From Octopus vulgaris (Eukaryota): a DNA stretch of 64,000 bases. The notes beneath the pieces are model-generated. The model searched no databases, was not told where the DNA came from, and saw only the letters and a list, made by a program, of their open reading frames with translations. The DNA is taken from the NCBI GenBank assembly GCA_951406725.2, contig OX597816.1, positions 94,674,001 to 94,738,000 on the forward strand. The letters run 5' to 3'. Positions 28,217-54,145 of the stretch are shown here, one piece after another. The stretch's first letter is position 1. Every line of letters begins with the position of its first letter. The translations under genes and the position numbers were made by a program.

Positions 28217-28247
<31 letters not shown>

Positions 28248-29406: not shown

Positions 29407-29438
<32 letters not shown>

Positions 29439-29538
29439 GCATGACACCTTGGGTGAGTGTCTTTTACTATAGCCTCAGGCTGGCCAAAGCTCTGTGAGTG
29501 GATTTGATAGACAGAAACTGAAAGAAGCCCATCGTATA

Positions 29539-29591
<53 letters not shown>

Positions 29592-32500
29592 AAAAAGTCC
29601 TGGGTTTCTTTTGTTTGACCAGAACCCTTCAAGGCAATGTCTCAGTATGGCTGCAGTCAAATGAGTGATATATATATATATATTTATTTATGGCATCATT
29701 CAGCTGTAGAAATTATGTCACTTCAGAATGGAGTCTAGTTCAGTGCTCCGCCAGCTTGCCAGCTCTGGTCACACCAACCAGCCCACCCCTGCCAGCATGG
29801 ACAACAGATGTTAAATGATGATGATGATGAGAGAGAGAGAGAGAGAGACAGGCAGACAGTGGTGCATATAAACAGGATTAGGCTCGATATATATATATAA
29901 ATATACAAATATAAATATACACATATAAATATACATAGATATATAGAGAGATATGTGCAGATACACATAACTAGGGTCAATTCATTCAACTAAAAAAAAA
30001 TTCTTTTGAAGGCAGTGCCCCAGCATGGCTGTAGTCAAATGACTGAAATGAGTAAAAGATATATATATATATATATATAAAACAATATATAATAATACTT
30101 ATTATATATTTTTTTATTCATTTTTGTACTTTTTGTGATCTAGTTATATGTTTAAAAAAATATATTTTCATCATCATCATCATCATCATCGTTTAGCGTC
30201 CGTTTTCCATGCTAGCATGGGTTGGACGGTTCTACTGGGGTCTGTGAAGCCAGAAGGCTTCATCAGGCCCAGTCAAATCTGGCAGTGTTTCTACGGCTGG
30301 ATGCCCTTCCTAACGCCAACCACTCTGAGAGTGTAGTGGGTGCTTTTTACGTGCCACCCGCACAGGTGCCAGACAGAGCTGGCAAACGGCCACGAACGGA
30401 TGGTGCTTTTTATGTGCCACCGGCACGAGGGCCAGGCGAGGCTGGCAATGGACACGAAACGGGGCGGTGCTGGCAACGGTCGCAAAACGGAAGGTTCTCT
30501 TACAAGCCACCGGCACTGGTAACACATCTGCAATTTCCATTGATCGATTTCGATTCTGATCCTCACTTGCCTCAACGGGTCTTCACAAGTAGAGTTTCGA
30601 CATGCCACCGGCACTGGTAACACATCTGCAATTTCCATTGATCGATTTCGATTCTGATCCTCACTTGCCTCAACAGGTCTTCACAAGTAGAGTTTTGTGT
30701 ATTTATTTTTTATTTATGATTTGGTTTATGTCTATCATTGTTTGAATTGCATAATAGTGGTTTTTCTCTAATTTATATATATAATCATCATCATTTTATG
30801 TCCACTTTTCCATGCTTATGGGTTTAATGGAATTTTGTTGAAGCAGATTTTCTATGACTGGATGCCTTTCCTGTTGTCAACCCTCAATAATTTACAAGTC
30901 AGGTAATAGTTCCACATAACTAGACATGTTTCCTTGGAAGATTGGGAATGAAGGGCACTGCTTGCCTTACAGAAGCAATGACCAAGACCTTTGGCATTAT
31001 GTCGTACTTGAGAAGAAGACCCATCAAGCCAAGCAAAATCACAGTCATGGCAGATACTGGTGTCATGCAAATGGTACCTGTGCCAATGGCAGATAAAAGT
31101 ACCTATTACACTCTCGGAGTGGTTGGCATTAGGAAGGGCATCCAGCCATAGAAAACCATGCCAAATCAGACTGGATCCTAGTGCAGCCTTCCAGTGTGCC
31201 AGCCCAGCCAAACCTAAATGATGATGATGGTTACTAGAGTACAATGGAGTGTTTGGTAACAATCCGATTATATAACCAATAATACTGTATATACTTCGGA
31301 TTATACACTCAGTCTATTGACAGATATACAAGTGCATCTTTTTCTTGACTTATGGACTTTTAGGTGACTTACTTATTTGTGTGTGTGTTTGGGGGTTGTA
31401 TCTCCTTGTCTTGAAATTGTATGTTAACTGTAAATGATTATCACCATCATAGAAGCAGTCATTCTTTTCCAAAATTCTGTGAGAACATGTCTGGCCATGG
31501 GGAATATTACCTTGCTTGTAAATAGGTGAGGGTTGGCTACAGGAAAGGCATCTGATGGTAAAAAATCTGCTTCAATAAACTCTGCTTGACCCTTGGTAGC
31601 ATGGAAAAATAGATGTTAAAATGGTGATGATGATGATGAATGTCCTCTAATAGTTTTGTATGTATTAAGTAGATGTTATCTATTTCTGCCTGTCTTCTCA
31701 CTTTGTCTAGCTGATCAGCAAGCATGGACAACTAAGATACCTTGCACTGTCTCTTGTAAATCAAAGATAACAACATTCGTGTATGTTACTAACAACTGAG
31801 TCACCTTTGTTTTTCAGAAAGAAAATACAGATGGACCTCGTGAACACATTGATATCAAATTTGAAGCTTTAATGCCGAAAGTAAGTTGACTTTGCTGTTG
31901 ATATTACAACTACAACTAGGAAACTTCTATGTGGTCATTCAACTTAGAGATAGTAGTCAAGTCTCCCTCATATCTTGGAAAATGACAATGATTCTGGTTG
32001 GAATGCTTTTGATCATAGGTCTGCTTGATTTGGGCCAAACAAAAACAGTTATTATCTTTATTGCTCCTAGTACTATTGCTGTACTTTGCATTAAATATAT
32101 GTCAAAAAGACTTTATGGTTATAACATTAGATTCTGCACTTATTTAATGCAGAATCAAATTTTCAATGAAGTTTTAAATGCTATTCATTTCACTTCACTT
32201 TCATTACTTGATAGACTTGAGAAAAGCATCAAAGACACACAATCTGATTTCCTTTTGTCACTTATTGTGAGGTATTGTGATCATCAAAAACAGGAATTCA
32301 TCTATGGATAGCCTAATACCTACAGAAATGTAAACAGTTTCACTAGAAATTATAATATTTTAAAAACATAAATGATTCATTTGTGTTTGTAAATAATTGT
32401 GTAACGTATGCATGTCACTCCTAAAGTGAAGGCATGTGGCCTAGTGGTTAGGGGCTGAGTTAACAATCATAAGTTCATGGACTGGGTGGTGCATTGTATC

Positions 32501-35500
32501 TCTGAGTAAGACACATCATTTCACATCGCTCAAAGCTACTCAGCTGAACATGAATACTAGTCGATTGCTGGTGCAGCCCTCTAGTTGCTCCAGCTATCAC
32601 ATCCTTGATATTTCACTGAGTCAAGTATGAGAGAATCAAATGGATGTTTATGTCTGCTTATACCAATAACATATTTGTGTCGCTTGGGCCCCTGAAACAT
32701 CTGTTTACCTTGCATATGTCAATGACATATAATTATCTGGACTACTTTGGTTCCCAAAACATATTTGGGTCTCTTTCGCTCCTGAAATTTATCAAAATCC
32801 ATCAAGATATTTACTTACCGGTGTTTGTTCTTTAGAATTCTGGTTGTCTTCTTGACTACTGAATCAACTATTGTAGATTGTTCAGTACCCACAAAAGTGA
32901 AATTTTTAGTTACATAATTAGATTCCTAAATTAATGAAGTACTTCTTTATTGTAGAAAATGTTTTTATTATTGTAATATTTGTAATGGTTAGAAAGAACA
33001 GCTAAATGCTGATAGTAAGAAATATTCAGTATCAGCATCCAGCTACTATTTCTAAAGACTAAATTTATAAAACCTTTTAATAGGCTTATGGCCTCTTGAT
33101 TCTCCATCTTTTCTCTTCTCACTGATGTATATTCATTGTTTTTTGCTTGATGAATCTTTGTTGGGAGTGGTTGACTATTAGGAACATTGCAGACAGGAAA
33201 TACCAACAAACGATTTTCTATCTAGATTCAAATATTAACTATTTAAAGCTGTGAGAGAACCGTTATATGATCATTCAGCCTGCAAATAATAGTTGCCAAA
33301 TTCTCCTCAAATCACACTCTACAATGTTAAAAGGACACATTGAAATATGTAGTCCTGAATACACTGCCCATAGCAAATAAGAGGGAGTGATCACAGCTAG
33401 ATTGTTTTTGACCATAGGTTTACATGATCAGGGCTAGCCTAGAGCTAAACAACAAAGGCTACTTAAATAACCTCCCACAATATCAACTATATAAATTATT
33501 ATTAGAGAAATAACACTGGATTAACATGATATGTGTGAAAGTAATGAATGTGTTAAGTGAAATACATTAGTAAAGAAGGGCTCTGGTTGGAGAGATCCTT
33601 CTCTTTACATGTTTTACTAACAACCAGTCTAACTCTTCATTTTTCTTTATCTCCAGCTATTAATCCCTGCTGAAAGTGGATCCTATCCACAAGTAGCTGA
33701 GCGACCAGATACTCTGTTAGTTCAAATCTCCAAAATGTCAGCAACCAATAAACAGAGTGAGGAAGAAACCAGTCATGAGAAACTATTACTGGCATTGGAA
33801 GAACAAAGCCAGTGCTGTCTACTTAAATCAACAGAATTCCCAATGGATCAGAACGAACTTTTGGTGTGTCCACAACATGTATGTAGTCATGTCTTAGAAA
33901 AGGACTGTCTTAATGCCTACATAGACTCATATGTGAAACAAGTGTTGACAAACTACAAGTTGTCATTGTCTGGCACGAACACAACTACAAATGCAGCTGA
34001 AATAGCTGACAGGAGAAGATTGAAAACCAACAGTCTCAAGCTGAATGCTGCATATGATATCTGGAATGTACATATTGATCAGATATGGATGGACTTCACC
34101 ACACGCAAGTCTCGCCCTGTTCCTTTTTTAGAGTCTTTCCCAGTGACATTTTGGTTTTGGCGAACTCAGCCCTGTAAAAGTAGGGAGAAGAAGGAAGGAG
34201 AGAGTAGATTTGGCCATAAAGACAGTTCTAAATTGAATGGGAGTCAGGATTATAGTGACACTTCTGAATCAGTTGATAGTGATAGTTCAACAACACTTTG
34301 TGATAATGATGGCCACACTGACATCTGTGCAATAGTATGTATCAAATCAAAAGTTCAAGTCCTACTCACACATTACCAGTATTTGTTCATGTTACGGCTT
34401 GCTGAGTCTTTAACAACCTTTCAAAAACAACTAGATGCTGACACTGAATATTTCTCCGGAACATTGGCATCTTCATCAATTTCTTTAACAACATTTGTGC
34501 AGGACATTGAAGTAGCGATGGTTTTCCGTAAACCATCTGAGAGTTCATTCCATAATGGAAACATGACTGAAGCTCATAGCAGTACCATAAAAGGAAGTAT
34601 ACCAGAACTGTCGCTTCCTGACCGGCAAGCAGAATTGGATGGTTGGCCAAACAGTAAGTTAATGTGCATGACTGTCATTTGTTTGATCTTGCTTCCCTCT
34701 AGAGGGTACAAATATATATAATACCCTCACCTTTCCATATATACATCATCATCATACCTACACACATCAAACATCCTCTCACCTTCCCAAACACTATCCT
34801 TCCTCCTATAAACACCACTAATATATAATGTGTTATTTCTGTTCTTTTGTTTTCACTCATCTGTCAAATTTCATAAATATTTTGTATTTGTTATCTATAA
34901 CCATTGTAAGTTTAATTATGATCATTATAGATTTTATTAATTCTTCCTAAGAACATGTAATAATTTCCTGCTGTGTTGTTTGTTGATCCATCAATGAATT
35001 TCTATGTTATTTGCAGATGACATGAACAACTATGATGGCAGCTTAAGTTACATCTCAAAATCTTACAGTGATTCTCGTTTAAATATCTCCAAGCATAGAA
35101 GTATGAATGGAGAGATGGTGGAGGGTTTGATCCATGAAGATAGCATGCAACCATTGAATACAGCATTAGAGAACAGTACTCCAAACATTAACCTCTGCAG
35201 TAGTGAAGGTGCATCAGAATGTGCAATGCCTATGTCACTGGTAACATATAGTGCAGCTTCAGACACTGTTTATTCAACAATAAGTTCAGATGCTAAAAGT
35301 GCTGGGCCAGCAGTTACAGCACGCAAATCCAGTTTTAAAAGTGAAAAGAAAAAAGTTCTGTCAACAGCTTGGTCAAATTTTACTGACAAGTTGAGGTCCA
35401 TGAGTGATTTAAATGACGATTCTTTGCTTGGTAGTGAAGACCTGGAACCAGGTCAGACTGATTATTCTTCAGATGATGAGTCATTTGAACATCTGTCATT

Positions 35501-38500
35501 AGAAGACGCTGAAGAACTTCCTGCATTTGAAAAGAAACAAACTCTTGATGCTCAGGGCTCTTTTGAAACTACAAGCCAAGACAGCAGTTTAGAAACTACA
35601 TCAACAGCTCGGGAAAAGCAACTAGTATGTGTTATTTATATTTTCTCCTTTTATGTGGTTAGCTTTGCAATGACTTCATATGAAAGTTTCCTTTTACTTA
35701 TTTTTCCAATATGATGTGGGACAGTGTGTTTAACCCTTTCGTTACTATATTTCTGACCAAAATACACCCCTTATGTGTTTCAATTAATTTCTAACATAAT
35801 CATAAATTTAGTCTGGTTTCATTAAACAACTATAACTTTTTTATTTATCAATATATTAACGTGAATTTTGGAAGATAATTTAATGAAATGTTCTCAACCA
35901 ATTCTATACTATAATTTTTGTCACAAAGTGACTCTAATTGCAGGTAGATACAGGTAAATTCAACAAAATATAAAATTATTAAAATTTTGTTCAAACATCA
36001 CTATAGAAAATGGGTTATTAGCTAATATTCAATTGGGTATACAACAAAATTTTACGATAGAATTTGTTATTCTGGGTAACTTTCTGATACCCATAATAAC
36101 ATTTATGGCAAAATAGTCTTAATTTCATTTAAGGTTATGGGAAACCACTTTCTTTCGTTTTGTTTACATTTAGCGTAACGGTTCGTTTCTGCCGTAATGA
36201 TTTCAAATAGGCTCATTCGAAAAAGTAAAAAGAAATAGTCTAAGGCTTTACTCTTCTGGGAAAGTCTGTGGCTTGGTCCAGTTTCTTCAGAAAAATCACC
36301 GAAAGAAACAGTTTTTAAATTTTCACTCCATTCAGGTGCCAATTCATTTTCTTTATCGCTGTCGGAGCTCTCGGATTCACTGTTTTCACTTTGGAAAATG
36401 AAACATCAGATTCATTATCAAATACCACATGCTTTTTTTTTTTCAGTCATAGAGTTAGATTTATGAAGGTCTTCAGTAGAAAATCCTTCGAATTCTGACT
36501 TTCTGCTTGATATAATGAAATTCGTATCCATTTTTTGTCAGAATTACAAATTTTGAAAACAATAGGAACAAATTTCGGAAAAAAATCTCCCAAAATTCAC
36601 GGAATTAAAATTACACTTCGATTTTTGTACAAAACTGTAGTTGAACTCTTTACGAAGTATAATACGTGTTTTCACGAATGTACTAAAGAGATTTGCTCTG
36701 ATATTCTCATTTAAATATGAATAGGTAAATTCGGGCGGTTTTGGGCGGCTTGGTCACATTAACCAAAATTTTTTTCGGGCGGTTTGGTAACGAAAGGGTT
36801 AAAGTGAAGATGTAAGACTATTGGACATACATCTATGCACTTACTACAGTTAATCATTTGTGTTTGTGACAAAGGCACATAACTTTGCTTGCCTTAGTCT
36901 GCCTTGCTGTAACAAGTTCTACTTTTGTTTCATAGTTGTTAGAATTAAAAAAGACATGCAGCTGTAAAAACAATTAGACCAACAGTATACAGATGTTCAA
37001 ATTAAATAAAATAATCATTCTTTAAAAATCTGTTTAAAAGCTAGAGCGCAAAACTAGTGATGCTGATGAAGTTAATGTTCTTTATGAGATTCATTAACTT
37101 GGCAACTAGTTCAGAGAAACAGATGTTATTGCAGTTGTTATAGAAGAAGCTGGGAGAAAAATACAAACATTTGTGAGTCTACAGCAGTAGTGTGTTGGTG
37201 AGTGTTTGTGTGTCAGTCTTCTCTTGAATGTGCTCTGTTCCAGATATATGAGCAGTTGTTACAATATGAGTTTTAGTAGAGTTTTGTAGATGGTCAGCAA
37301 ATGATCAGAGGTTGAGGTATTTCAAGCCCTAAAAAAGAAACCTAGAGTTTGTGATGTTTTTCTACAGATACCTAGCATGAGCATGTCAAAATAGATGTAA
37401 AACAGTGAAGATAAGTCATAATGTGTGAAGATATACTGGAAGGAGATAGTTCTGCCTGACTAACTATCAACACATCAGTTTAAAAAATGGTAGATTTTGC
37501 TATAGAGAAGAAGTTTCATGTATTAGTGGATGCCTGTTATAAAACCAGTTATAAATTACACATCTGGAAATAGTTTATATTTTCTATCACTCTCCTAAAG
37601 TATGCTAAATATTTATGTTGCATATTGTTTCTTCAAATGCTTACTTATTAATTACAAATTTGTCTTTTTTTAATCCATAATTGGCCTACCACTAACATGA
37701 TGTTTTGTGTATATTACGTTTCTGAATGACTTTGTATGTTTCATTTTTAGTTTCAGATTTAGACCCCATAGGTTACATCCATTGATCCACTGCTATCCCT
37801 ATCACCAACTTGCTATTCATCTTTATCTCCAGCCAATGAAGGAACCTTTATTTAGTCAGTTGACCTGCTAGAAATAGCAGTCAAATCTCTTACATTAGTA
37901 TCATAAAAAAGAAAGGATACATTAGGTAATGTAGTTTGAGGTACACTATTCCTGAAAAAAAAAAAACCTAAAAAAAAACGGGATAGTCATGGCTTGACTG
38001 CCTTTGATTGTACATCTATTTGATGGCAGTTGAATACATCTCTACCAAATCAATATTATTCACTATTATTACATGTCCTCACATTTGCAGCTATTTCAAT
38101 AGCATATAATTTCAAGTCAATTCACAATGCAGGCTCATATTGTGTAAAGCAAAGATAAAGCTACATAGTGAAGCAATAAGTTAATTTTAAACAAGTCATC
38201 TTCTGCTTTTTTTCAGATCAATGTTTCAATCTTCCATTTGAGCCGAACTGAAGCATTTGTCCAGAACTTGAGAAGTGGTACTGTATTACGTTGTCAATTA
38301 GAAAATATTGATGTTGCTGAATCAAGAGGTTTCAGCTGGGAAGGATTCCACCGCAAGTTTACCTCATCAAAAGGTATTTTTCATATATTCTTGTAGTAAA
38401 ATTAGCATTGTTTCCTAAGTGTCCCTATTGTTCTATTCCATTAATGAAGTCAACAGTTTAAATGTATATCACAGTAACCATGTAGTTTCTGGTTCAGTCC

Positions 38501-41500
38501 TACTGCCAGACATCTTTGGGCAAGTGTCTTCTACTATAGCCCCAGGCTGACCAATGCCTTGTGAAAGAATCTGACTGATTAAAACTTGTGTCAAAACCCT
38601 TTGAAGATATATGTGTGTTTTTATGTTTTTACTTGTCTCCCACCACTGCTTGACAGCCTGATTTGGTTTGTTTATGCCTCCATAACTTAGCAGCTTGGCA
38701 AAAGGAACTGATAGAAAAAGTACCAGATTTAAAATAAAAAAAAAAAAAATGTACTGGGGTCAATTTGTTCAACTAAGACCCTTCAAGACAGTGTCTTAAT
38801 ATGGCTACAATCCAATGACTGACACAAGTAAAAGATAAAAGATCCATTTTCTAAAGTGTGTAATTTGAGTAGCAGGTATACGAGTCGATGACATGCTAAA
38901 TTACCAGCTGCAAGGTAACTTGTTCAAATCTTTGACCAGCATTGTTTTGTGTCTAAGGACAAATCACTTAACTTTTAGTTGGCTCATTGATTAGCCATCT
39001 GCTGTGATAGGTGCTGTGTTGTTGGAACATGCACATGACTTGTGTTTTTGAGTTATTGATGTTAAGTCTGCAGTGCATAACTCTTCAACCTATCAGTTTT
39101 CTCCTGTAGATAATCTATCTTTGAGGAGAAGATTACCAAGTCAAGTGTACACTCAAGTTCTAAATGTGAGGGAAAATGTATACATAATACCTCTGATGGG
39201 GTCTTATTGATGATCCATTCATTGTTAATTAAGACACAGATGTGGGAAGAATACAGCCTTGTCACAACTAGATTTCACTGATGTTTCATAATCTTGTGGG
39301 TTGAGTTTACAGAAGGCAAGCAGTGTTTTCTGTAACATCTTCATTACCTAAATCATTATTATCTAACTTTGTCAACATTTTATACTTCTTCCTCTATCTC
39401 AGCTTACATTAATCAATATGTGGGACAGGTTCTTCTGTCTATCAATTAGTAGGTAGCTGAATAGTTTCCTGTTTGTTATTTATTACTTTACACACATTTC
39501 TCATCCAATTTGGCTGGTAAATCTGCTGTTGTTGTTTTGTATTAGGTTTACAGTATGAGACAAAATCAATGTCAACAGCGCAGTTCCCAGTACGACTAAA
39601 GTATATGATTGGTCCTGGTCTGGCTGAATTAAAGAATGATCTCATTGGACAAGAGCGGGGATTTTTACACATTGACTTGGCTGACATCAACCTGACATTT
39701 CAGATGTCAGCTCTTATGAATATAACTGACCTGATTGAGGATGAGCTCCCTCCTGTCTTCATGCCACTCTATATCAGCATCAAAGACCTGACACTGACAT
39801 TACAGGTAAGGCTTTTTGGACAGTTATTGAATAATTGTTTTATTTTACAGTTTCAAGGTGTTGTATCTGACACTACTGCTATAGGCAAGGCTTGTTGGGT
39901 AGCTACTGAACAGATAACTGGCTGTTTTCAGGGTATGGAATGTAAACATTAGGGTTAAGGTAGAGCTGTACGCCAGAAAATAGGGTTCAATAAAATCAGT
40001 ACCAGAAAGTGAAATAACGAAGTTGGGTAGCAGACTTAATCTGTCACATGGTTTAACATCACTGCCCAGTCCTTGGGTGCCTTGAGTGAAGCTCACTCTG
40101 TTTGCAAGTATTCAGGTCAGGCCTCCAGTTTGAGGATATATTCTTTCTTTCCTTCTATGTGTTTCTATCCTCCTTTTGTTAACTCTCTTTCTCTCTGGTT
40201 GGCCAACTTTGTACCTCCTAAGACACCTGTTTCTGTCACACTCTAACCTTTTATCATCTGATGCAAAATTACCTCCTCCAATACTCCCTCCCTTCTCAAA
40301 GATGTTTTATCTTGCAAGTTACTTGGTGACCCTGCAAGTGCTGGTGCCACATGAAGTGGTTGGCATTTGGAAAGGCATCCAGCTGTAAAAACCATGCCAA
40401 AACTGACCTTTCCTGTGCTGATGCCATGTAAAAAGCAGTCAGTCCACTCTGCAGAGTGGTTGGTGTTAGGAAGGGCATCCAACCATAAAACCATGCCAAA
40501 ATAGACACAGAAGCCTGGTGTAGTCTTCTACCTGGCTGGCTCTTCTCAAACTGTCCAACCTATGCCAGAATGGAAGGTGGATGTTAAACAATGATGATGA
40601 TGAAATACCTTTCCTGTTACCAATCCTCACCTGTTTCCAGGCAAGGTAGTATTTTCCAATGGCTGAACATGTTCTCCCAGAAAGTTGGAAAGGAATGACA
40701 GCTTCTATGATGGTGACACTCATTTACAACTGTCGAATGATGTCATATACTGAAAGGCAAAGTTTGCTCAACAGATCGCAAGTACCACTTCTTTATAGTT
40801 GAGTAATTAGTTACTGGAAGGACATCCAGCTGTGAAAACAATTACTCCATGAATATCTTCACTCTTATAGCATAGCAAATATAAGACAACCAGACACACA
40901 CACTTTTTAAAGAATGTCTTATTGATACTTGATTTAGTCAAAATGTATCAGCTGTTTCAATTTATGTAGAATCCAAATATCAAGCTTCTTAATGAGTGCA
41001 AGACATTTTAAGTGATTTTAAATTGTTGTATGTGATACATTTAACCTCTCTGCAATCTCTCAAACAGTTATATGACAATCAGATTCCGTTATGGCTTTGA
41101 TTTGGTCATCATCAACTTCAGTAGATCAACTAGAACATTGGTCATCTTTGAGTGAAAAGTCTCCAGAACGGAATTTTTAAAATCATTTCTGATATGTGCA
41201 TTCTCTTAAGTGATCAGCACCATAAACCTCACATATCTCTTTTTGAGCCTCAGCATACGGTGAAAATGTTCGTTTTTGCACTCTATGCTAAAATTGACAC
41301 TTAACTAATAGCTGTGGACAAAATTACATACAATTTGCTTCTAAAGTAAGCTAAAAGTAACAGCTATTAAATGTTAAAAGGTAAAAAATCATAACATTGA
41401 CAAAAGTCATTCAAGAAGATTGTAACTCTATCTATTTGTGAAAAACGAAATTACATTCTTGCTAACCCAGTATTCTCAATATTGTCCTTAACAAAAAGCA

Positions 41501-42888
41501 AGAAAACCAGTTTTTTTTAACCCATAAAAATTTAAGGTTTAATGTTTATAAATCTATTATACTGAAATGATTTCACATTAGTTATCACTGTTACTATTTC
41601 ACAGGAAGACCGTCCATCCAGCTGTGGCAACTCTAGTCAACCACCAACTGTAATTTCATTGCATCGTTCAATAATTGATCGTGGAGGGGATGGAGTCTTT
41701 CATATCAGAGGTAAACATGTTTGTATTTCTGAATAATTTGGAAGAAGAAGCATATATGTAGTTTTAATTTATTATTTAATGTTGATATAACATGAAGAAA
41801 GGTTCAGAAATGTGTTAACACATTAAGAAAGTAAATAATCAAAGGGAGAAAATGTATTAAAAAAAAAGAGTTGAAAGGCACATTTTAAGTGATATATAAC
41901 TTCTATTTAAATGAATGGGTTTTCAACTAAACAGTGCTTGATATAAATAAAAAGATGAGTTCTCATACTCAAATGATCTGTCTTTGCACATGTACTTGGA
42001 TAATTTCTTGTGTAGTTTTGATTACTGATTATAGGATGTAATACTAAGCTACTTAACACCTAAGTTTTTAGAGATAGCAAATAACTAGGAGGAAGCTCCT
42101 ATATCCATTTTCCGTCATTGTAATATAAATAACCTTACTGCTGTACATTACAAGGAAATTCTCTACTGGTGCTCAGTAATACTCTGTAGCAATTACTGTG
42201 TCCAGAGAAAATTTTTTGAATGATTTTAACTGAGGTGTCCAGTATTGAATCAAACTGACACTTACAGAATGTATGAAAGTAAATTCTGAACTAGATTTGA
42301 ACTTCCTTCAATTATTTTTTTTTAATATTATTTAAAAATGTTAACTCTCATACAATGTGATATTTCTTTTGACCAACAGGTGCTAAAGAGAGTGAATATT
42401 ACAAAAGGATCTCAAAATCATCCTCGATTACCAAAAATTCATCAGGTGAAAATCAAAACACCTTAGAAGCTGCTTTATATGGTTCTGTTAGTACTTCTAG
42501 TCGAATAATTGAACAGTTACATAATGAGAATGAAGAACTGGTATCTGTTAATAGAAAGCAAGCTGAAACTTTAGAGAATTATACAAAGCTTATGGCAGAA
42601 GTTGCCAGTTTGAAGGATGAAAACCAAAAACTTAAGGAATCTTTAGATGAAACAGTCTCTCAGATACAAGATTCTAATCAGAATTTCTCCTCAGAACATA
42701 TAACATCATTAGAAACTGAAAATCTGAAACTATTACAAAAGATTACTTACTTAGAAGAAGAAATACAAACATCTGTTAAAGAAAAGGACTCATTACTAGC
42801 AACAATGCACCTGCTTCAAGAAGAGTTGCTTTCATCAGAGCAACAACGCACCGGTTTCCAGCATCTACAAAGTCCTAATCAAGCATAA
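93..42888 (+). CDS. BLTP3: Bridge-like lipid transfer protein family member 3 (UHRF1BP1/UHRF1BP1L/SHIP164 homologue); 18 coding exons in window, first coding exon upstream
   Basis: Spliced translation follows the BLTP3 N-terminal chorein region (RFTKNLSPDKI..EGEL.NLELDE..LPTWL; WTKLKT.PICL; TCEEPRSPN; YGF.E; FKE.DWQ.TRIEA; LDDLLWVLT.TQLKA). All introns GT-AG with matching phases; exon total 4423 nt; ends in a coiled-coil exon and TAA at 42886-42888. Confidence 0.93.
1913..3521 (-). mobile_element. hAT (Buster/SPIN/GTF2IRD2-like) DNA transposon, internally deleted
   Basis: 15-bp TIRs caggggtcaccaaac / gtttggtgacccatg (1 mismatch); 8-bp TSD ttttacag / atttacag; ORF 2225-3289 has SLA.DES.D...AQL.VF.RG, TTTGEDI and LNLKLQG motifs. 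Confidence 0.9.
5545..6293 (+). mobile_element. Possible non-autonomous Helitron/Helentron-like element
   Basis: Follows a (TA)n/(TG)n tract; carries aactcctcccacacc..ctgattttaatgatttttggcaca (partly repeated near 5775); ends in a decayed hairpin plus CTAG at 6290-6293. Confidence 0.35.
6291..6443. repeat. Fold-back of (CA)n-(CAT)n plus retroposon tail
   Basis: taggata(ca)n..(cat)n gtcgtttaa / 13-nt loop / ttaaatgac(gat)n..(tg)n tatccta. Confidence 0.85.
8170..9426 (-). mobile_element. Mariner transposon, cecropia/Hsmar1-like, with both TIRs; transposase is a pseudogene
   Basis: TIRs ttaggttgtcaaggaagttcttgc / gcaagaactttcttgacaacctaa flanked by TA; WVPHKL, HDNARPH and YSPDLSPTDYHFF motifs; several in-frame stops between 8573 and 8717. 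Confidence 0.95.
9785..10867 (+). mobile_element. Tx1/L1-clade LINE 3' fragment (zf-RVT) with A-rich tail, interrupted by a SINE
   Basis: Translates to WQCYRGALPVRDKL..CPRCEQDRETVLHAIIQC..VW and AIAKEVIWKLR; caataaaaaaa near 10856-10866. Confidence 0.75.
10343..10646 (+). mobile_element. tRNA-derived SINE with (AAT)n tract and degenerate hammerhead core
   Basis: A-box-like tggcatagtga and B-box-like gagttcgattt (10382-10436); CTGATGA...GAAACGTT at 10557-10592; flanked by ttaccaacaggt / ttaccaaaaggt direct repeats. Confidence 0.7.
10920..10958 (+). CDS. BLTP3: BLTP3 39-nt exon IQWTKLKTQPICL
   Basis: ttttatAG acceptor, GTAAGT donor; matches the conserved WTKLKT.PICL motif. Confidence 0.9.
11796..11881 (+). 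CDS. BLTP3: BLTP3 exon YLDEVVLEVETCEEPRSPNNPQMPTSNV
   Basis: ctAG / GTGAGT; TCEEPRSPN motif; phase 0 to 2. Confidence 0.9.
11925..12235 (-). mobile_element. CR1/L2-type LINE 3' end
   Basis: RKHFFTLRVAEVWNNLPASVV....SFK C-terminal motif, 3' UTR and ATT-rich tail; related copies at 26461-26722 and 56400-56965. Confidence 0.8.
14506..14611 (+). CDS. BLTP3: BLTP3 exon PGKYGFVERAIDGIYVHINSVQVNFRSKTFQASLQ
   Basis: AG at 14504-14505, GTGAGT at 14612; phase 2 to 0. Confidence 0.88.
14899..14972. repeat. (TA)n microsatellite, representative of many (TA)n, (CA)n, (AAT)n and (GAT)n tracts
   Basis: Direct reading; others near 5497, 6501, 10450, 11339, 20022, 29550, 43540-43800 and 62405. Confidence 0.95.
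15546..15789 (+). CDS. BLTP3: BLTP3 exon MSRVKVHSV...IAVKKNMN
   Basis: tAG / GTAAGA; DLR.TR.KD..RGEV..FKE.DWQ.TRIEA motif. Confidence 0.92.
17300..17463 (+). CDS. BLTP3: BLTP3 exon CSIVSSRVILLLDDLLWVLTETQLKA...EKLK
   Basis: tttcAG / GTATGT; LDDLLWVLT motif. Confidence 0.92.
17521..17732. mobile_element. piggyBac-type MITE (about 212 bp)
   Basis: TTAA|ccctttagcatt ... aatgctaaagag|TTAA: 12-bp TIR with 1 mismatch and TTAA TSD. Confidence 0.75.
17905..18222 (-). mobile_element. tRNA-derived SINE, family A (other copies about 340-620 -, 20370-20745 +, 27672-27812 -, 29440-29665 +, 38470-38843 +, 55757-55880 +)
   Basis: Minus strand begins tggctgtgtggtaag...gttcagtcccactg (A/B boxes), then ggcaccttgggcaagtgtcttctactatag and a (TG)n body repeated across the window. 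Confidence 0.8.
18908..19088 (+). CDS. BLTP3: BLTP3 exon KQGHIASDQ...FDVLSTSYHLITSRIDLHLCDDMQPRK
   Basis: ttttcAG / GTAATT; FDV..TSYHL....DLH.CDD motif; open frame not listed in the ORF track. Confidence 0.9.
19320..19520 (-). repeat. Interspersed repeat, family D (copies about 7875-8060, 21555-21735, 31940-32040, 33265-33460, 37850-38030, 46235-46380)
   Basis: Recurrent motifs gac(c/t)tgctagaaatagcagccaaatctccctcaaatcacacc and ctttgatcatagg..tgcttgatcagggct; class not assignable; orientation arbitrary. Confidence 0.6.
20075..20293 (-). mobile_element. tRNA-derived SINE, family C (copies about 12660-12820 +, 14140-14230 -, 26315-26743 -, 28835-29025 -, 45120-45290 +)
   Basis: Shared core gaccctgaaaggatgaaaggc.aagttgacctt.gc.gaatttgaactca; B-box gagttcaaatt on the minus strand; (AAT)n tail. 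Confidence 0.75.
20899..20994 (+). CDS. BLTP3: BLTP3 exon SATTFCSKIEGGAMQVTLNKLSIDYYPFNPA
   Basis: ttccAG / GTAATT; GGAMQ and DYYPF motifs. Confidence 0.9.
21624..21829. repeat. Perfect 53-bp inverted repeat (fold-back)
   Basis: 21624-21676 is the exact reverse complement of 21777-21829. Confidence 0.95.
22899..23110. mobile_element. Tc1/mariner-type MITE (about 212 bp)
   Basis: 31-bp imperfect TIRs tagggtagcccaaaattaggtttacagttat / ataactgtaaacctacttttgggtcaccctg, flanked by TA. Confidence 0.8.
24207..24324. repeat. 118-nt near-perfect hairpin
   Basis: 24207-24248 pairs exactly with 24283-24324; inner agagtttcat/atgaaactct stem with an 8-nt loop. Confidence 0.95.
25331..25486 (+). CDS. 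BLTP3: BLTP3 exon GERKQWYRYSDQVGSRNHWV...SPSHST
   Basis: ttgtAG / GTAATT; phase 1 to 1. Confidence 0.87.
26461..26722 (-). mobile_element. CR1/L2 3' fragment nested in a family-C SINE
   Basis: Close match to 11925-12185; the SINE sequence stops at 26460 and resumes (gattctgccagctc) at 26723. Confidence 0.8.
26979..27359 (+). CDS. BLTP3: BLTP3 exon: Ser-rich linker then LLESCFVL...STAD...HMEFTEYYYPEGVNLP
   Basis: ttacAG / GTAAGT; conserved STAD and EFTEYY.P motifs. Confidence 0.92.
28000..28246 (+). mobile_element. RTE-tailed retroposon/SINE, family B (copies about 7365-7625 +, 15942-16170 +, 16215-16400 -, 30168-30695 -, 31050-31230 +, 40335-40602 +, 47235-47390 +, 48520-48945 -)
   Basis: ggttggcgttaggaagggcatccagc..aacccatgctagcatggagaacggacgttaaacgatgatgat tail; the same 3' sequence is joined to RTE coding sequence at 53337-54145. 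Confidence 0.8.
28622..28728 (+). CDS. BLTP3: BLTP3 exon PHANLYVLLNPVQLRVDYLTLLWLNYFVLQLSKNL
   Basis: tttttcAG / GTTAGT; P.NLY..LN and LWLN.F motifs. Confidence 0.9.
31818..31880 (+). CDS. BLTP3: BLTP3 63-nt exon KENTDGPREHIDIKFEALMPK
   Basis: ttttcAG / GTAAGT; EH.D....LM.K motif. Confidence 0.85.
33657..34653 (+). CDS. BLTP3: BLTP3 997-nt exon (LLIPAE...HYQYLFMLRL...GWPN)
   Basis: ctccAG at 33655-33656, GTAAGT at 34654; contains ORF 33735-34721 with PF.ESFP and HYQYLF.LRL motifs. Confidence 0.92.
35017..35624 (+). CDS. BLTP3: BLTP3 608-nt Ser/acid-rich, probably disordered exon
   Basis: ttgcAG / GTATGT; phase 1 to 0; lies inside ORF 35004-35714. Confidence 0.85.
35734..36798 (-). mobile_element. 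piggyBac deletion derivative (1.07 kb)
   Basis: TTAA|CCCTTTCGTTAC ... GTAACGAAAGGG|TTAA perfect 12-bp TIRs; subterminal ttcgggcggttt repeats; ORF 36103-36342 has piggyBac N-terminal motifs (DYFFLLF..ETNRYA..W.PIT..EIK). Confidence 0.88.
38217..38373 (+). CDS. BLTP3: BLTP3 exon INVSIFHLSRTEAFVQ...RKFTSSK
   Basis: tttttttcAG / GTATTT; open frame; phase 0 to 1. Confidence 0.82.
39546..39805 (+). CDS. BLTP3: BLTP3 exon LQYETKSMSTAQFPVRLKYMIGPG...LIEDE...LTLQ
   Basis: ttAG / GTAAGG; GPG, GFL and IEDE motifs of the C-terminal region. Confidence 0.87.
40920..41470 (-). mobile_element. Mariner remnant (second subfamily): 5' TIR plus HTH region
   Basis: TA|ctgggttagcaagaatgtaatttcgttttt TIR; degraded translation EICEVYG..KFRSGDFSLKDD..TEVDDDQIKAI..EIAERLNVSHTTI..KKLDIW. 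Confidence 0.75.
41605..41710 (+). CDS. BLTP3: BLTP3 exon EDRPSSCGNSSQPPTVISLHRSIIDRGGDGVFHIR
   Basis: cacAG / GTAAAC; R..DG.FHIR motif. Confidence 0.87.
42380..42888 (+). CDS. BLTP3: BLTP3 terminal exon, C-terminal coiled coil
   Basis: aacAG at 42378-42379; frame continuous into ORF 42592-42888 (heptad-like E/K/L/Q); stop TAA. Confidence 0.88.
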
Positions 42889-46800: not shown

Positions 46801-49214
46801 TATGAATCAACTAAATTGACCAGTACTGATATATCACCATTGAGCAGCTAATAGTAATCAGGACATCAAGCCCCCAGCTAGTAGTAGTAAGGATATCTAG
46901 TCCCGTTCTTTAGGAGCAATCTATAGTGAGCTAATAGTAGTAAGGACATCAACCCCCACCAGTTAATAGTAGTAAAGATATCCAGCTTCATCCTTTGAGA
47001 GCAATCTATAGTGTTCACTTTTGTTTTGGATATATTATCTGTACATTTAAGGTCTTGTTACATTGTAGTCCCTACTTCAAAAGTTGCAATATGAAGAGAA
47101 GTTTTAAGGAAGATTTGGAAGCTTCAATAACTACATTAGTAACTTCTTCAAGTTCCTAAGTCCCAGTAACAATCTTTCATATAAACATTCAATAATTAGA
47201 AGGATGACTATCTTACAGGTACATGGTAACTTCACAAGTGTTGGTGCTACATAAAAAGCACCCAGTACACTCTGTTAAGTGGTTGGCATTAGTAAGGATA
47301 TCCAGCCATAGAAACCATGCCAAAACAATAAAATGTGGTGGAACCTTCTGGCTTGTGTGTTCTTGTCAAGCCATCCAACCCATGCCAGCTTGAAGAAAAA
47401 GGCAGATCTTTTTCATTTGCTTCCAACCACTTGAAGATTTTTCAATTCTCAATGGATTGTTTTCAAATTTTTCACAGATGTAGTTTTGCATGCTGATGAT
47501 GAATAATAACTAACAAGAGAGAAGTATTTAGTTGTATATTTTTAGTTAATGAAATGAGTTGTGTTCTCACAAGTGGAAGCTGAATATGTCTGCTGCCATG
47601 GCAACTAAGTTGCCATAACTACAAACAATATCATTGAAAATGAAGAAAGGAAGCTTGAGGCTTTTTTTTAAAAAAAAAAAAGAATTTAATGAAAGAAAAG
47701 AAAACAAAAATGGATTTTTTAAAAAGAAAAAAGAATTTAAAAATGTAAATAAGGAAATAATTTTTTCTTGAAGATTTATATTTATATACAATAATAATAT
47801 TATTGCCATAGTCAGTTTTTTGACATGCTGCTAGAATTAACAGCCAAAACAAAACAAAAATATTGAAATTAGTGAATATGAGATATACCTTGCAGTATCT
47901 TTTCAAACAAGTCTTGTTTTGAATACATGTAGCACCACATAAATTGCAGAGATACAAGTCCACTGAAGAATGATGAAAGCCACAGCATCATTTATTTCCT
48001 CATTTCAGACAGGCTCAAATGCTTTCTGCTTATTGAGTATGGGTCCTGTCCTGCAAGTTTACAAACTTGACTCTGTAGTTCACCATTCTATTGCGAAATT
48101 AGTATCCTGGTATCTCAGGAATATGTGAGTATGCATGCCATGGGTCACTGTAAATAGTTGTTCCTAACAAAATTGATTGACAAATGAATTCTTTGAGTGT
48201 ATTATGATCTCAAGATAGTATGGGGAAAAGAAAAACTTCTTGAGTTTCATGACACACAATGCTGAAAACCCACTGTTTGAGTAGCATTTGATCTGTTTTA
48301 TTTTCTTGAAAAGCCCGTTTTGTCTATTTCAACACTTCTGCTAGGAGCACCAATTTCTGTTGGTTTGCATAGCAAATTGTCTGCTGCAGTCACACCAATT
48401 CCTAATTCTAAGTGAAAGGGTTTCCCTTTCCAGCCACATATTTCTTCTGACAGACACAGACTCTCGGCATTGTCTCTTACTACACTTCCAGTATATGCAG
48501 CCATGTTGTTGTTTGTTATATCATCATCATCATCGTTTAACGTCCATTTTCTCAGGTGGCATGGGCTGGACAGTTTGACTGGGGACTGGCAAGCCAGGAA
48601 GCTGCACCAGGCTACAATCTGATGTGGCTATGTTTCTACAGCTGGATGGCCTTCCTAATGCCAACCACTCCACTCTGAGAGTGTAGTGGGTCCTTTTTAC
48701 GTGCCACTAGTACAGGAGCCAGTCAGACAGCACTGGAATTGTTCATGTTCGGATGGTGCTTTTTATGTGTCACCGGCACAGGGAGCCAGTCAGATGGATC
48801 TGGCAGCGACCCATGCATGAATGGTGCTTATTGCATTCCACCAGCACTAGTAATGGCCACAACTACAATTTCCATTTGATTTGATTTTGATTTGACTTAA
48901 TAGGTCTCCTGAAGCATGGATTGTTGCCCGACGATTCAAAGGTACTTTTTATGTTCAAAAGAATTAAGTTGTCATGACAACAAACAGTTTTGACTTCCAC
49001 CGCGAGGGTAGTGGCTTAAATTTCATTGGCTAAAAATACATAACTTTAAATGCTTCTAACTTCTTTATTTAAAAATTTTCCAAAATAATAACTGCAATAT
49101 TTGATATCAGCATGCTAAACTATATCAAATGTACATTTTTTGAAAATGTTCAGATTAAGATTGTTGAAAGCAAATGAAAAAAATCAAAAAAGGACTTTAA
49201 ATGATGATGATGAT

Positions 49215-49910
49215 GATATTTTGTTTGAGTCAGCATCTTGCAACTTAGAGTTTCACTTTCTTCAGGCAAATTGTGAGTGGAAAATCAATGGGATTATCAC
49301 ATTTATAGTTTTCTAGTCATAGGGTGTGAATGTGGGGAGAAAGAATGATAAAAGAAGGGAGAAAGGAAGAGAAAACAGGGAAAAGTAACAGACAGAAAAT
49401 GAGAGTAAAAAGACTGAGAAAGTAGAGTGAAAGGAAGACAAGAGGCAAAAAAATGGAGAAAAATAGAAAAAAGAGAGAGATTTTTTTTCTTTTTAATTTA
49501 TTTTACTTTATTCCTTCTGAACTATTGACCATTTCTCCAGAACAGTACACTCCTAAAATTCTTTGTATCTATTCTACATTTTGTTTACTCTTTTGCCACC
49601 TTACTCATTCTTAATTTAGCATCTCTGCTATTTCAACTGTTATATTTTTCATTCATTACTTCTTGTAGTTCATGTGCTATCCCATCCTGTATGCATCTTA
49701 CACCTGTTTTCTCTTTTCCTTTCCTTTTCTCCTTATCTTCCTTTCATTTCATTTTTTTTTCTATTAGTCTCTTCCCTTTTCCCCTCCTTTATACTTCTTA
49801 CCATTGAAAAGTACAAAGCCCATCTCTTTTCCAGTTACAACATGCCTGAAGATCTTGTGAACCTACAGGTAAAACTCAGAGTAGCAAGAGACTGATTCAA
49901 CCAAAATAAC
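49215..49910. mobile_element. Old inverted pair of Penelope pLTR/retrozyme-like units with degenerate hammerheads
   Basis: Minus 49269-49238: ttgc CTGAAGA aagt GAAA ctctaag TT gcaa. Plus 49843-49886: tgc CTGAAGA tcttgtgaacctacaggt AAAA ctcagag TA gca. Downstream flanks are homologous; purine and pyrimidine tracts mirror each other between them. Confidence 0.55.
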
Positions 49911-49999
49911 ATAACATTAACCTCTATCATGATTTTGACTACTCTTTTTTGACAGTTAATACTAAACGAATATATATATCATCATAAGAATATATATAT

Positions 50000-50404
50000 A
50001 GCAATAATAATTCTCTAAACGAGATATAGACAGTAACTGCTCCATAACAAAAGGGACATTAGCCATTTGAATGTGGCTTAGAGAATTATTATTGCTGTCG
50101 AATAGATTTTCGAAATCAGTAAATGTATTTACGTGAAAATCTATATATAAATATCCTGCACAGAGAGTCGTTCGTTGAGGGGCGGTGCCTACCATACGTT
50201 GACGAGAGGCAAACACCTCGAAACCTGGGTCCGTATGTGGCATCCACTTCTTCGGGGAATGATCTCCCTTTGCAGGATAGAGGACACCGTGAAGGTGTCA
50301 GCCTATCTGGTGACGTTGATGATCGCCTGGGGCTAAATGCATCAGTAACACCCCCACCGCCCTGCCCTGTCCCTAGCCACATTCAAATGGCTAATGTCCC
50401 TTTT
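50000..50404 (+). mobile_element. Retrozyme/Penelope-pLTR-like element (about 357-nt unit with an inverted 5' segment)
   Basis: Perfect interlocked inverted repeats 50000-50018/50078-50096 and 50049-50078/50375-50404; GC/CpG-rich body; hammerhead inside; flanked by (TA)n. Confidence 0.75.
50193..50237 (+). ncRNA. Type I hammerhead ribozyme motif (C3U variant)
   Basis: catacg TTGACGA gagg-caaaca-cctc GAAA cctggg TC cgtatg: 6-bp stem I, 4-bp stem II, near-palindromic stem III, GUC cleavage triplet. Confidence 0.8.
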
Positions 50405-51439
50405 AATATATATATATTCATATATATATTCCATGCTGACATGAGCTGAACAGTTTGACAGGATCCAACACATCAGAGGACTACATCAAGCTCAAAATAA
50501 CAAACACTTTACAAAGTGTGCTGGGTGCTTTATTTTATGGCCCTGGCTCTACTGAGGTCACCCACTTAATTGCAAGACAAAGAAAAAAGTTTCTTGACTT
50601 AGTGGAAGTAGAGGGAGGTGGCTTTATGCCAAGTGTTGAGAAGCTAATGTATGATAATGTGACAAGAATGTGTCTGGCTGTAGAAGAGTTACATGTTTAC
50701 TCTATATAACTGTGGGTGGGAGTAACTGGAGAGATAAAGATGGTGGTGACTAGGTATTGGAGCTTATCCAGGCAGTACTAGAAGGTTGGTATAAGAGAGA
50801 ATATGACAAGAGGATTGGGAAGCATGGGTAGATAGTGCATAAGAATATGGGGAAAAGGTGATATGAAGGTAGAGGTGTATGTAGTGAAAATGTGATTGAT
50901 GGTAAATAGCCATTTGAGAGAGAAGCTGCAAGAAGTAAGAGTGGCTCAGGGAGGAGGAAATGGTGACAATACAGAAAGTGTGGAGAGTAGCAGTATAAAA
51001 CTGCAGATGGATGAGAAATAGGGTGGGGTGGGGATAAGAAAGACATAGTGAAGAGATGAGATCAGAAATATGTAGGGGTAGATATAGTGAGTGGAGAACG
51101 AAGGTGGAGGGAGCATCTATGGCAGATTTGAGTGGGTGATAAGGATGAGGTACAAAAGTCATAAAATGTAATTCAGGAGAAAGGGAGATATGATACTGAG
51201 AATAACGAATCAATGCCAAAAGGAAGTGGTTCCAAGGATAGGGATAACTGGTAGCACAAAAGGGGGTGAATTATGTGCAGTTCTGCTTTCTTTTGAGTAA
51301 AGCAGCAAAATAGTGCCATAGAAGAATGATAGGGTTAGGAAGATGAGAAGTAGGTGGCCAAGAAGTCTTGACAGGGACAGTGTGTATGGACATGAACATA
51401 ATGCTTGTAGAATCTTATTTTCACTATGATGGATAAGTC

Positions 51440-51960
51440 TTGTCAACCATCTCCATCTTTTTTCATCTCACCTGTGAAGTTTAACATCCTGAGGTCAGTT
51501 TTTGCAACTCCATCTTACATCTTCCAGGTTTCACTCACATTTAGCTATTGGCATTTTATGCAGCTCTCATCAATATGCATCAAATGATCATAACAGCACA
51601 GACTTCGCCCTTGTATCATTACATTTGATTCCTCTTACGCTGTTTTCTGTCAACTCATTAACACTCTGAAGTACATGCGCCTTAATGTATCCAACCAACA
51701 GAGCATGCTAGTTTCATTCCTTTCTAGTCTGCCCTCTCTGTTCAGGACCAACATCTCACTAGCATATAACATTGCTGTTCATACAAACTGCTTTTCACTC
51801 TGAGACTTTTTTTTATCAACAGAGGGAATAGCTCTTTGTACTTACATCATCCTATTCTTATTCTAGCAACAATACTTTCAGAATATTCTCCTCCTCTGCC
51901 AATTTTGTCACCTAGGTAACAAAAATGATCTAATCCCTTGAGCAATCCTTCTAGGTATTT
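51440..51960 (-). mobile_element. Degraded RTE LINE RT/C-terminal fragment
   Basis: Minus strand gives LDHFCYLGD and a decayed RTE-like C-terminal region. Confidence 0.5.
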
Positions 51961-51965
51961 GAGTA

Positions 51966-51998
<33 letters not shown>

Positions 51999-52455
51999 TC
52001 CCAGGTGCATTTATGTTTTTAATGCCGTTGACACTGCTGAGTTGAACAGTACTGTCCAGGGGATGAAACCATAGTGATTTCTGTCTGGCAGCTGATAATG
52101 GGACTGTATAATTTGGTATGCTTTGTGAATTTTTTTTTTACATCTTGGGGTCTCCTTATTCTGAGTTGTCCTTCATTTTCATAAGTTGAAAGTGTTTGTG
52201 AATTAATATTGGCTGATTTATTTCATAGATAATCTTATTAGGTTTGGATAATGGTTTCTAATTTTGGTAGGTTATGTGGCATATATATTTATATAGTAAA
52301 GATTATTTGCCAACATAATGTGTCAATCCCAGTTGGGATGAATGTTACTGTTATTTGGACCCAGGAAACATCGTCTCTAGCTGACTATACAACACACTGT
52401 ATCCTTATATTTTCAAACAGGGGAGTTTAGCATCCCCACTTAACACAAAGCAATA

Positions 52456-52500
52456 TCTGTGGACTGCAGTTTCTAGGTTATTTCCCTTCTTCAGCACAGA
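52456..52500 (-). ncRNA. Type I hammerhead ribozyme motif, copy 1 (conserved core nucleotides intact)
   Basis: tctgtg CTGAAGA a-ggg-aaataa-cct-a GAAA ctgcag TC cacaga; palindromic stem III CTGCAG; GUC site. Confidence 0.8.
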
Positions 52501-52824
52501 ATAACTGCTCGGCTAGAGATGGCACTGCTAAATTCCTGTTCAAAAATATAATTTTCAAAGTGATGCACAGTCACTGATCTAATAACTAGATAAATGATAA
52601 ATAAATAAACATTATTATTTCTAAATCTCTCAACGAGACATTCAGTAACAGTACTCTAAAGTAAAGATTATTTGCCAACATAATGTGGTAGTCCCAGTTG
52701 GGATGAATGTTACTGTTATTTAGCCCCAAGAAATATCGTTTCCAGTTGGCTATAGAACATACTATCAGTGATCTTGTATTTTCAAACAGGGGAGTTTAGC
52801 ATCCCTACTCAACACAAAGCAATA

Positions 52825-52869
52825 TCTGTGGACCGTGGTTTCTGGGTTATTTCTCTTCCTCGGCACAGA
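52825..52869 (-). ncRNA. Hammerhead motif, copy 2 (U4C)
   Basis: tctgtg CCGAGGA agagaaataaccca GAAA ccacgg TC cacaga. Confidence 0.7.
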
Positions 52870-53073
52870 ATAACTGCTTGGCTGGAGATGGTGCTGCTTA
52901 ACTTCAGGACTGATACATTATGTTGGCAATGGATCTTTACTGAGTGTCTCTTGTTGAGAAATTTAGAAATAATAATGCTTCTATTTATTAGATCAGTGAC
53001 TGTGTGTCACTTTGAAAACTATATATATTTTTGAACAAGAGCTTAACAGCACCATCTTTGGCTGAACAGTTAT

Positions 53074-53118
53074 TCTGTGCTGAGGAAGGGAAATGACTCA
53101 GAAACCGCAGCCCATAGG
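53074..53118 (+). ncRNA. Hammerhead motif, copy 3 (cleavage site mutated to GCC)
   Basis: tctgtg CTGAGGA agggaaatgactca GAAA ccgcag CC catagg. Confidence 0.65.
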
Positions 53119-53336
53119 TATAGCTTTGTACTGATGCTAAACACCCGTTTGAAAATATAAAGGACACAGATAGTGTCGTATAGCCTCAGGAGAAGATGTT
53201 TCCCAGGGCTAAATAGCAGTAGCATTTGTCCCAACCAGGACTGCCACATTATGTTGGCAAATAATCTTTACTTTAGAGTACTGTTACTTAATGTCTCTCA
53301 TTGAAAGATTTAGAAATAATAATGTTCCTATTTACT

Positions 53337-54145
53337 TCATCATTTAACATCCATTTTCCATGCTAGCATGGGTTGGATGGTTCGACCGGGGTCTGGGAAG
53401 CCAGGAGGCTGCACCAGGCTGATCTGTCAGTGTTTCTACAGCTATATGCCCTTCCTAATGCCAACCACTCCGTGAGTGTAGTGGCTGCTTTTTATGTGTC
53501 ACAGGCAAGGGGGCGGGCAGAGAAAGCTGACTACAGCCATGATCGGTTGGTGCTTTTTACGTGCCACCAGCATGGAAGCCAGTCAAGGCAGCACTGGCAT
53601 CAGCCACATTTGGATGGTGCTTTTTACATGCCACTGGTACAGGTATTACAACTAAAATTTCCATTTGATTTTGAATCTGATGTTGATGTACTTCACTCAA
53701 GAGGTCTCCTCAAGCACAGCAGCTCGTCCTACAATCCAAAGTAAGCACAGCAGGTCGTCCTACAATCAAAGGTACTTTGAATGGGCTGAGGTTGGTTATG
53801 TGAAGCTGGTGGATACGCCATGGACTCACTTTATTTGTTGGGTCTTTGTAGTCACAGCCTATCTCCAGAGGTCTCGGTCTTTTGTCATTGCCTCTGTGAG
53901 GCCCAACCAACATTCAAAGGTCATGCTTGACCACCTCATCCCACGTCTTCCTGGGTCTACCTTTATCATGGATTCCTTCAACTGTTTGGGAGTGGCACTT
54001 CTTCACACATCTCTCCTTATCCATCTGTAATACATGACCATACCAGCGCAAACGTCTCTTGCACGCCACATCCAATGCTTCTTATGTCCAAAATTTCTCT
54101 CAGGATGCTTACAATCCGTCGTGTGTGCATACTGACATTACACAT
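53337..54145 (-). mobile_element. RTE LINE 3' fragment carrying the family-B tail
   Basis: Minus strand RLRWYGHVLQMD...GRPRKTWDEVVKHDL..LTEAMTKDRDLWR, followed by the family-B 3' sequence. Confidence 0.8.

Follow-up and report, generated by a model that had tools for sequence, protein, structure and literature searches.

The 64,000-nucleotide stretch of Octopus vulgaris DNA analysed here, hereafter the window (assembly GCA_951406725.2, contig OX597816.1; G000:C3:94674001-94738000 in our numbering, in a genome of 2.8 Gb and 227 contigs), carries three non-coding repeat units within ~4 kb, and together these units hold six type I hammerhead-like ribozyme motifs. We consider it probable (roughly 0.8) that the units, here called A, B and C after their families, are three likely independent insertions of different ages, that B and C are related tandem retrozymes for which a Penelope-like element (PLE) likely supplies the copying enzyme in trans, and that A is likely a truncated PLE. 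With monomer numbering starting at the cleavage site, the features are as follows:

49213..49968, two arms: family A insertion (unit 1), head-to-head; minus arm ~49213-49473 with the short 3' end, plus arm ~49474-49968 with the long 3' end; junction approximate
49234..49273, minus: hammerhead A1; CUGAAGA core, stem II deleted, predicted site after 49242; likely inactive
49841..49888 (approximate), plus: hammerhead A2; CUGAAGA core, G12A (GAAA to AAAA), predicted site after 49883; likely inactive
49913..49968, plus: family A tail, ~55-60 nt separating both fixed 3' ends (~+30 and ~+90 from the cleavage site)
49969..49999, unstranded: TA-rich tract between the long ends of A and B; likely target of B
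50000..50078, minus: family B inverted arm (unit 2); monomer positions 144-222, long 3' end, 44-nt tail
50078..50404, plus: family B direct arm (unit 2); monomer positions 204-357, then 1-~175 (short 3' end), then (TA)n
50191..50239, plus: hammerhead B; UUGACGA (U3.G8 wobble), 4-bp stem II, near-palindromic stem III, GUC site after 50231
52292..52903, minus: family C minus arm (unit 3); ~1.7 monomers, short 3' end (position 174) at 52292
52454..52502, minus: hammerhead C1; full core, palindromic stem III, weak stem II, GUC site after 52462
52823..52871, minus: hammerhead C2; CCGAGGA (U4C), weak stem II, site after 52831
52905..53335, plus: family C plus arm (unit 3); long 3' end (position ~228-233)
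53070..53120, plus: hammerhead C3; NUH lost (GCC), likely inactive

The six motifs and three non-coding units had been proposed in an earlier note on this DNA, and all were located in the window at these coordinates. The note had ended unit 1 at 49910, and the homology in fact carries on to ~49968. It had also read each unit as duplicated in tandem, inverted orientation or both; both kinds of duplication are present in the window, but unit 2 is not tandem there and A is tandem in none of 46 loci. The six motifs exist as described, but three (A1, A2 and C3) are broken and only C1 has the full core.

Two fixed 3' ends and their pairing

The evidence for mobilisation by a PLE lies in the anatomy of the insertions. 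In A, B and C, and in B2 (L177-L206), a sister family of B first recognised from sequencing-run contigs matching B, the arms are joined head-to-head with scattered 5' ends, and the 3' ends fall at two places, ~178 or 222 in B, ~174 or 224-247 in C and ~+30 or +90 in A, mostly into (TA)n. The tail between the short and the long end measures 44 nt in B and ~55-60 nt in A and C. For B we assembled 40 unique loci (30 fetched plus 16, duplicates removed), these being the best-scoring matches and so non-random; in all 30 two-armed loci with classifiable ends a short end is matched by a long one, and none is short+short or long+long (binomial p=2e-9), the remainder being seven one-armed loci and three with an unclassifiable end. 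Among clean two-armed A loci 13 of 15 are short+long and two are short+intermediate, a hand count for C gave short+long in 9 of 10 two-armed loci, and all three units of the window obey the rule.

We note that published accounts of the PLE tail give it as a 30-40-bp extension confined to one end (PMC8557442; PMC3846280), and that in vitro it lies between two internal start sites of the reverse transcriptase, or RT (PMC11167929). The start site in the latter study showed no difference between strands, and the strict short+long pairing is for this reason the sharper observation. The two fixed 3' ends of A, B and C are the PLE tail. The earlier note's idea of Penelope mobilisation is well supported by these ends, by the head-to-head arms, by the (TA)n targets and by a co-resident intact PLE of the same anatomy. 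Its broader claim, that the genome hosts several Penelope-mobilised ribozyme and circular RNA families, stands as regards the PLE anatomy and the tandem retrozymes B and C, but B and C belong to a single superfamily, A is non-tandem and half of the motifs are broken.

Candidate helper and RNA template

Next to one B copy lies a GIY-YIG fragment, and through it a young autonomous PLE family was found, for which the best 150 of 19,174 candidates were scored. It has an intact open reading frame (ORF) of ~955 aa (L154:2270-7358, in G000:C19:23214500-23223500; further loci L155-L160), with frames of 970-984 codons in six of the seven fetched loci and likewise in the seventh, on the minus strand of L156. 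The ORF holds an Asn-rich insert and a Cys motif preceding the GIY-YIG domain; a Pfam scan of the intact 956-aa ORF returned nothing at E<=0.01, whereas a related fragment did match GIY-YIG, and look-alikes of this PLE fall among HTH_animal/GIY-YIG clusters. Both terminal repeats carry a hammerhead with a long stem II (60-nt region), the two fixed ends lie at ~+40 and ~+152 in (TA)n, leaving an unusually long tail of ~112 nt, and the inverted arms of L156 are 100% identical across 2.2 kb. The last few bases of the long end resemble those of B. A second PLE fragment, used as a query, gave only older copies and one short B2-like piece within another repeat. The intact young PLE is a candidate helper only, having no homology to A, B or C.

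As to the RNA that was copied, B arms differ by 1.35% within a locus and tandem units by 1.53%, compared with 3.56% between loci, and locus-private variants common to both arms were found at L023, L162, L172 and L175; this within-locus similarity and the shared private variants indicate that both arms likely derive from one RNA. The 35 simple B loci comprise 63 arms, of which at least 54 run past the cleavage site and 39 are longer than one monomer; among B2 arms, 22 of 26 run past the site. Five arms seemingly start at position 1; three of these run through the site and two have no mapped upstream match. Since the arms cross the site and their 5' ends do not pile up there, a cleaved linear monomer is not the usual template, which was likely an uncleaved multimer or a re-ligated circle.

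In the published retrozyme model a monomer cleaves itself, is re-ligated into a circle and is copied repeatedly by the PLE enzyme, and such rolling-circle copying is a serious possibility here, if somewhat short of an even chance. It accords with the near-identical units of arms that reach 3.5 monomers, with monomers that are more stable as circles than their shuffles (z -3.6 for B, -5.4 for B2 and -2.5 for C) and with the demonstrated circular RNAs of mussel retrozymes (PMC7229834). It would also accord with what we have on expression, namely contigs from runs guessed to be RNA, which give no start, end, strand or level and come without a silent control. B- and B2-like pieces occur in eight such runs from four studies. 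One contig of 390 nt has mapped ends that overlap by 30 nt, read as a 360-nt cycle, another of 359 nt has a depth of 142, and both are ~91% like B where aligned; this suggests an abundant 360-nt cyclic B relative, but tandem transcripts would yield the same picture. Further B/C-like sequences in run contigs reach a summed contig depth of ~1270. The back-splice junction proposed as a test for circular RNA was dropped as non-discriminating, the 357->1 junction being present in genomic tandem arrays as well.

Against the circle, all five multi-unit sites with shared variants are split by monomer register, which a single monomer circle does not predict, the register pattern of L188 is identical in both arms, and insertion in vitro has no need of ribozyme cleavage (PMC11167929). 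The register evidence comes from three loci only, and a singleton test was not significant (p=0.07 for B; B2 in the opposite direction). Register-matched arms are closer to each other in B (1.06% versus 1.78%, p=0.002), where a triple test also gave 52 versus 50 (p=2e-4, pseudo-replicated); this trend was not repeated in B2 (p=0.24 and 0.37), and unique-event counting for register was not significant. Within-locus differences show no A-to-G excess.

Alternatively, and slightly more tentatively, we consider it possible that each insertion with two arms is the work of a PLE dimer priming both target strands from two fixed and different sites on one uncleaved multimer. Retrozymes would then hitchhike by a structural signal and not by homology, and the hammerhead or the circle would be a side product or a regulator and not the intermediate of transposition.

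In our reading of B and C as retrozymes copied in trans, tandem copies would be transcribed, and the weak ribozyme would for the most part depend on dimers formed through its palindromic stem III to cleave itself, from which ~360-nt circles may result. Judging by the ends and by published in vitro work, a PLE enzyme, likely a Penelope-like reverse transcriptase/GIY-YIG protein and probably a dimer, would nick both strands of a (TA)n target, and each strand would have its own fixed internal start of RT on a single RNA, the two starts being separated by 44 nt. The products show both arms extending past the ribozyme site to scattered 5' stops and meeting head-to-head, with one short and one long 3' end left, presumably by this route. 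The cluster would follow from common TA targets and from the TA flanks left behind, and would not be a functional unit.

Families, kinship and ribozyme cores

All three units are multicopy, as the earlier note had supposed. Counts of motif matches, exact for B and with <=2 mismatches for C and A, are at least 105 for B, 188 for C and 329 for A, all lower bounds, with 0-1 in reversed controls, and the copies are dispersed over many contigs. In DNA searches that scored the best 40 of 1860 (B), 3208 (C) and 330 (A) candidates, long B matches show 95-99% identity and those of A and C ~80-90%. The period is 357 nt in B, 355 nt in B2 and 365-369 nt in C, and tandem arrays of these families reach 3.5 units. 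The 26-nt motif of B2 has at least 294 matches in G000. One and the same B2 insertion occurs twice, inverted and 250 kb apart (L187-L192; G000:C2, ~152.13 and 152.39 Mb), likely through segmental duplication, and a second family C insertion lies at G000:C3:94785384-94785802, ~59 kb from the C copy of the window.

The earlier note had regarded the units as unrelated, which alignment contradicts for B and C. B and C align with a score of 61 (shuffle maximum 40), which after removal of the ribozyme is 61 against 38.5, and B2, 77% identical to B across 283 nt, aligns with C over nearly the whole monomer at 145.5 (shuffle maximum 38.5); A matches none of B, B2 and C. On these alignments the window units are two lineages, A and a B/C superfamily connected through B2, and not three.

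B and C fit non-autonomous tandem retrozymes, and A is not a tandem retrozyme. That all three units are instead truncated terminal repeats of autonomous PLEs is unlikely: in the loci seen, the long arms of B, B2 and C enter another monomer, never unique sequence or an ORF, and no PLE-like frames were found in B/C units. For A alone the proposal fits, as its homology spans a polypyrimidine tract and continues for 700 nt or more upstream without tandem return, like the 3' region of the intact PLE. We therefore take A likely to be the truncated 3' end of a longer PLE; no ORF was found upstream of A in 12 longer loci, though these copies are themselves truncated.

The Rfam check suggested in the earlier note did not bear the motifs out, with no hammerhead match at the gathering score or at E<=10. 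The core is intact in 68 of 75 B and 28 of 31 B2 motifs, and all 96 of these core-intact motifs (of 106) have U3 with G8, a wobble kept over the 23% divergence between B and B2, which also share their two ends. The canonical core CUGANGA/GAAA/NUH is seen in C1 and in many A copies. C often has U4C, and a hand count (n=35) gave 14 CTG, 11 CCG, 3 TCG and 2 CCA, which suggests an ancestral U4C core decaying through CpG; the canonical core of C1 may be secondary. U4C lowers activity and yet occurs naturally (PMC3088659). Stem III is, as had been proposed, a perfect or near palindrome in B, B2 (perfect) and C. Stem I is paired in 96% of cells across 59 B/B2/C motifs, and four of its six pairs show compensatory changes. 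Stem III has a C-G to U-A switch with the palindrome retained; taking the three stems together, 8 of 13 pairs changed on both sides and 87.6% of cells are paired. In cofolding, B and C1 are each predicted to form a stem III dimer (double hammerhead) that lies 6-7 kcal/mol lower than the two separate monomers. Hammerhead motifs belonging to unrelated families were also noted at L093:7739-7896 (an inverted pair) and L157:7506-7566.

A number of points weigh against the reading of B and C as active retrozymes copied by a PLE enzyme and of A as a PLE remnant. The loci behind the end rule are best-scoring matches and not a random sample, and arm-to-arm gene conversion could be another source of within-locus similarity. 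The terminal repeat of the young PLE resembles A, B and C at shuffle level, through low-complexity pyrimidine matches only, and no homology of A, B or C to an autonomous PLE terminal repeat was found with this one intact family or near 30 older PLE fragments, other PLE families not having been searched. The PLE tail of ~112 nt differs from the 44 nt of B. No PLE coding sequence was found beside copies of A, B or C (166 loci and the window; 12 longer A loci), the sole exception being an unrelated PLE into whose end B is inserted. As for the ribozymes, the covariation in B/B2/C comes from three lineages and so from few independent events, and family A is 82.7% paired with covariation not above shuffles. 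A mismatch stands at the base of stem II (38 of 59 B/B2/C motifs unpaired), and this mismatch, U3.G8 in B and the frequent U4C in C may slow cleavage; only one of nine predicted Xenopus retrozyme dimers cleaved in vitro (bioRxiv 10.64898/2026.07.22.740005).

Origin of the cluster and significance

Serial insertion into shared TA targets is the likely origin of the cluster, because the units differ in age, B lies in the TA tract at the end of A, and such stacking is seen elsewhere. It is very improbable that the cluster is a selected functional ribozyme array, acting for instance on the upstream BLTP3 gene, and we rejected this. Exons of the BLTP3 family (BLTP3A/B, bridge-like lipid transfer protein; Pfam PF24917) lie at 26921-39949 on the plus strand, a frame at 42373-42885 may be the last of them, and the cluster stands ~6 kb past the last BLTP3-like frame; moreover, uniform insertion would rarely produce this exact A+B+C triple (rough hand estimate ~0.002). 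Yet copy ages differ greatly (95-99% identity in B, ~80-88% in A and C), three of the six motifs are broken, strands are mixed, and B is directly adjoined by PLE ends in 2 of 40 loci (L004, L015), while C and a PLE end stand beside A in one locus each (L072, L078); a single PLE domain gave as many as 19,174 first-look candidates.

Elsewhere in the window an abundant repeat resembling a short interspersed element, with (ATC)n ends, occurs at 48530-48950, 53337-53780 and 30216-30700 and flanks units A and C, and transposase-like frames lie at 2228-3337 and 8718-9263 (both minus), the latter matching the Mos1 mariner HTH domain. Outside it, a repeat at L234:2050-2420 contains a 63-nt piece resembling the region before the tail of B2; its ends we take to be Helitron-like.

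Elements of this type are known, and what is distinctive here is how the ends pair, a core with U3.G8 and a helper pair that can be tested. The metazoan non-LTR (long terminal repeat) retrozymes, described at this size in mussel, are, like B and C, ~350-390-nt non-coding tandem units with one type I hammerhead and a palindromic stem III, and PLEs have been proposed as their helpers (Cervera and de la Pena 2020, PMC7229834). In comparison, the PLE tail, the head-to-head arms and the strict short+long rule are seen directly here, B and B2 carry a U3.G8 core and C frequently one with U4C, and our elements are known from DNA and contigs alone. With the terminal repeats of endonuclease-containing (EN+) PLEs (PMC8557442, PMC3846280, PMC11167929) they share tandem and inverted insertions, a one-end tail, microsatellite or AT-rich targets, two internal RT starts and a hammerhead upstream of the ends; B and C differ in encoding no protein, and the tails (44 nt in B, ~55-60 in A and C, ~112 in the resident PLE) exceed the 30-40 bp described. 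A preprint by Li, Clavereau and Pollet (2026, bioRxiv 10.64898/2026.07.22.740005) likewise concludes that retrozymes depend on PLEs, from co-occurrence and terminal-repeat homology in 35 animal genomes, mostly vertebrates, whereas here the link is drawn from the anatomy of the insertions, and no autonomous repeat homologous to them was found. The minimal hammerheads of metazoan PLEs are dimer-dependent and of low activity (Cervera and de la Pena 2014, PMC4209133); their dispersed single or opposite-strand motifs from truncated PLEs fit A, and the core variant given there is U3-A8, compared with U3.G8 in B and B2. An octopus repeat annotation lists 190 Penelope-like families making up 6.83% of that genome (PMC13282606), with no ribozyme, hammerhead or retrozyme in its main text and no hammerhead or retrozyme in its supplement, and A, B and C may be present, unnamed, within that library. 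Our literature search, outside which most subscription papers lay, found no paper on a cephalopod retrozyme.

The cluster itself is of little importance. Family B, to which unit 2 belongs, is likely the youngest of the families, and since it is young and non-coding with dozens of clean insertions, it records integration by a PLE enzyme, its short+long pairing being a testable clue to the mode of insertion. The pairing, the common arm haplotype and the read-through bear on whether PLEs mobilise retrozymes directly and on the choice between circle and uncleaved multimer as template. If the uncleaved multimer should prove right, the conserved U3.G8 ribozyme would be one tuned down so as to permit read-through, and the B/B2 superfamily together with the intact PLE would offer a ready system for the unresolved integration cycle of PLEs.

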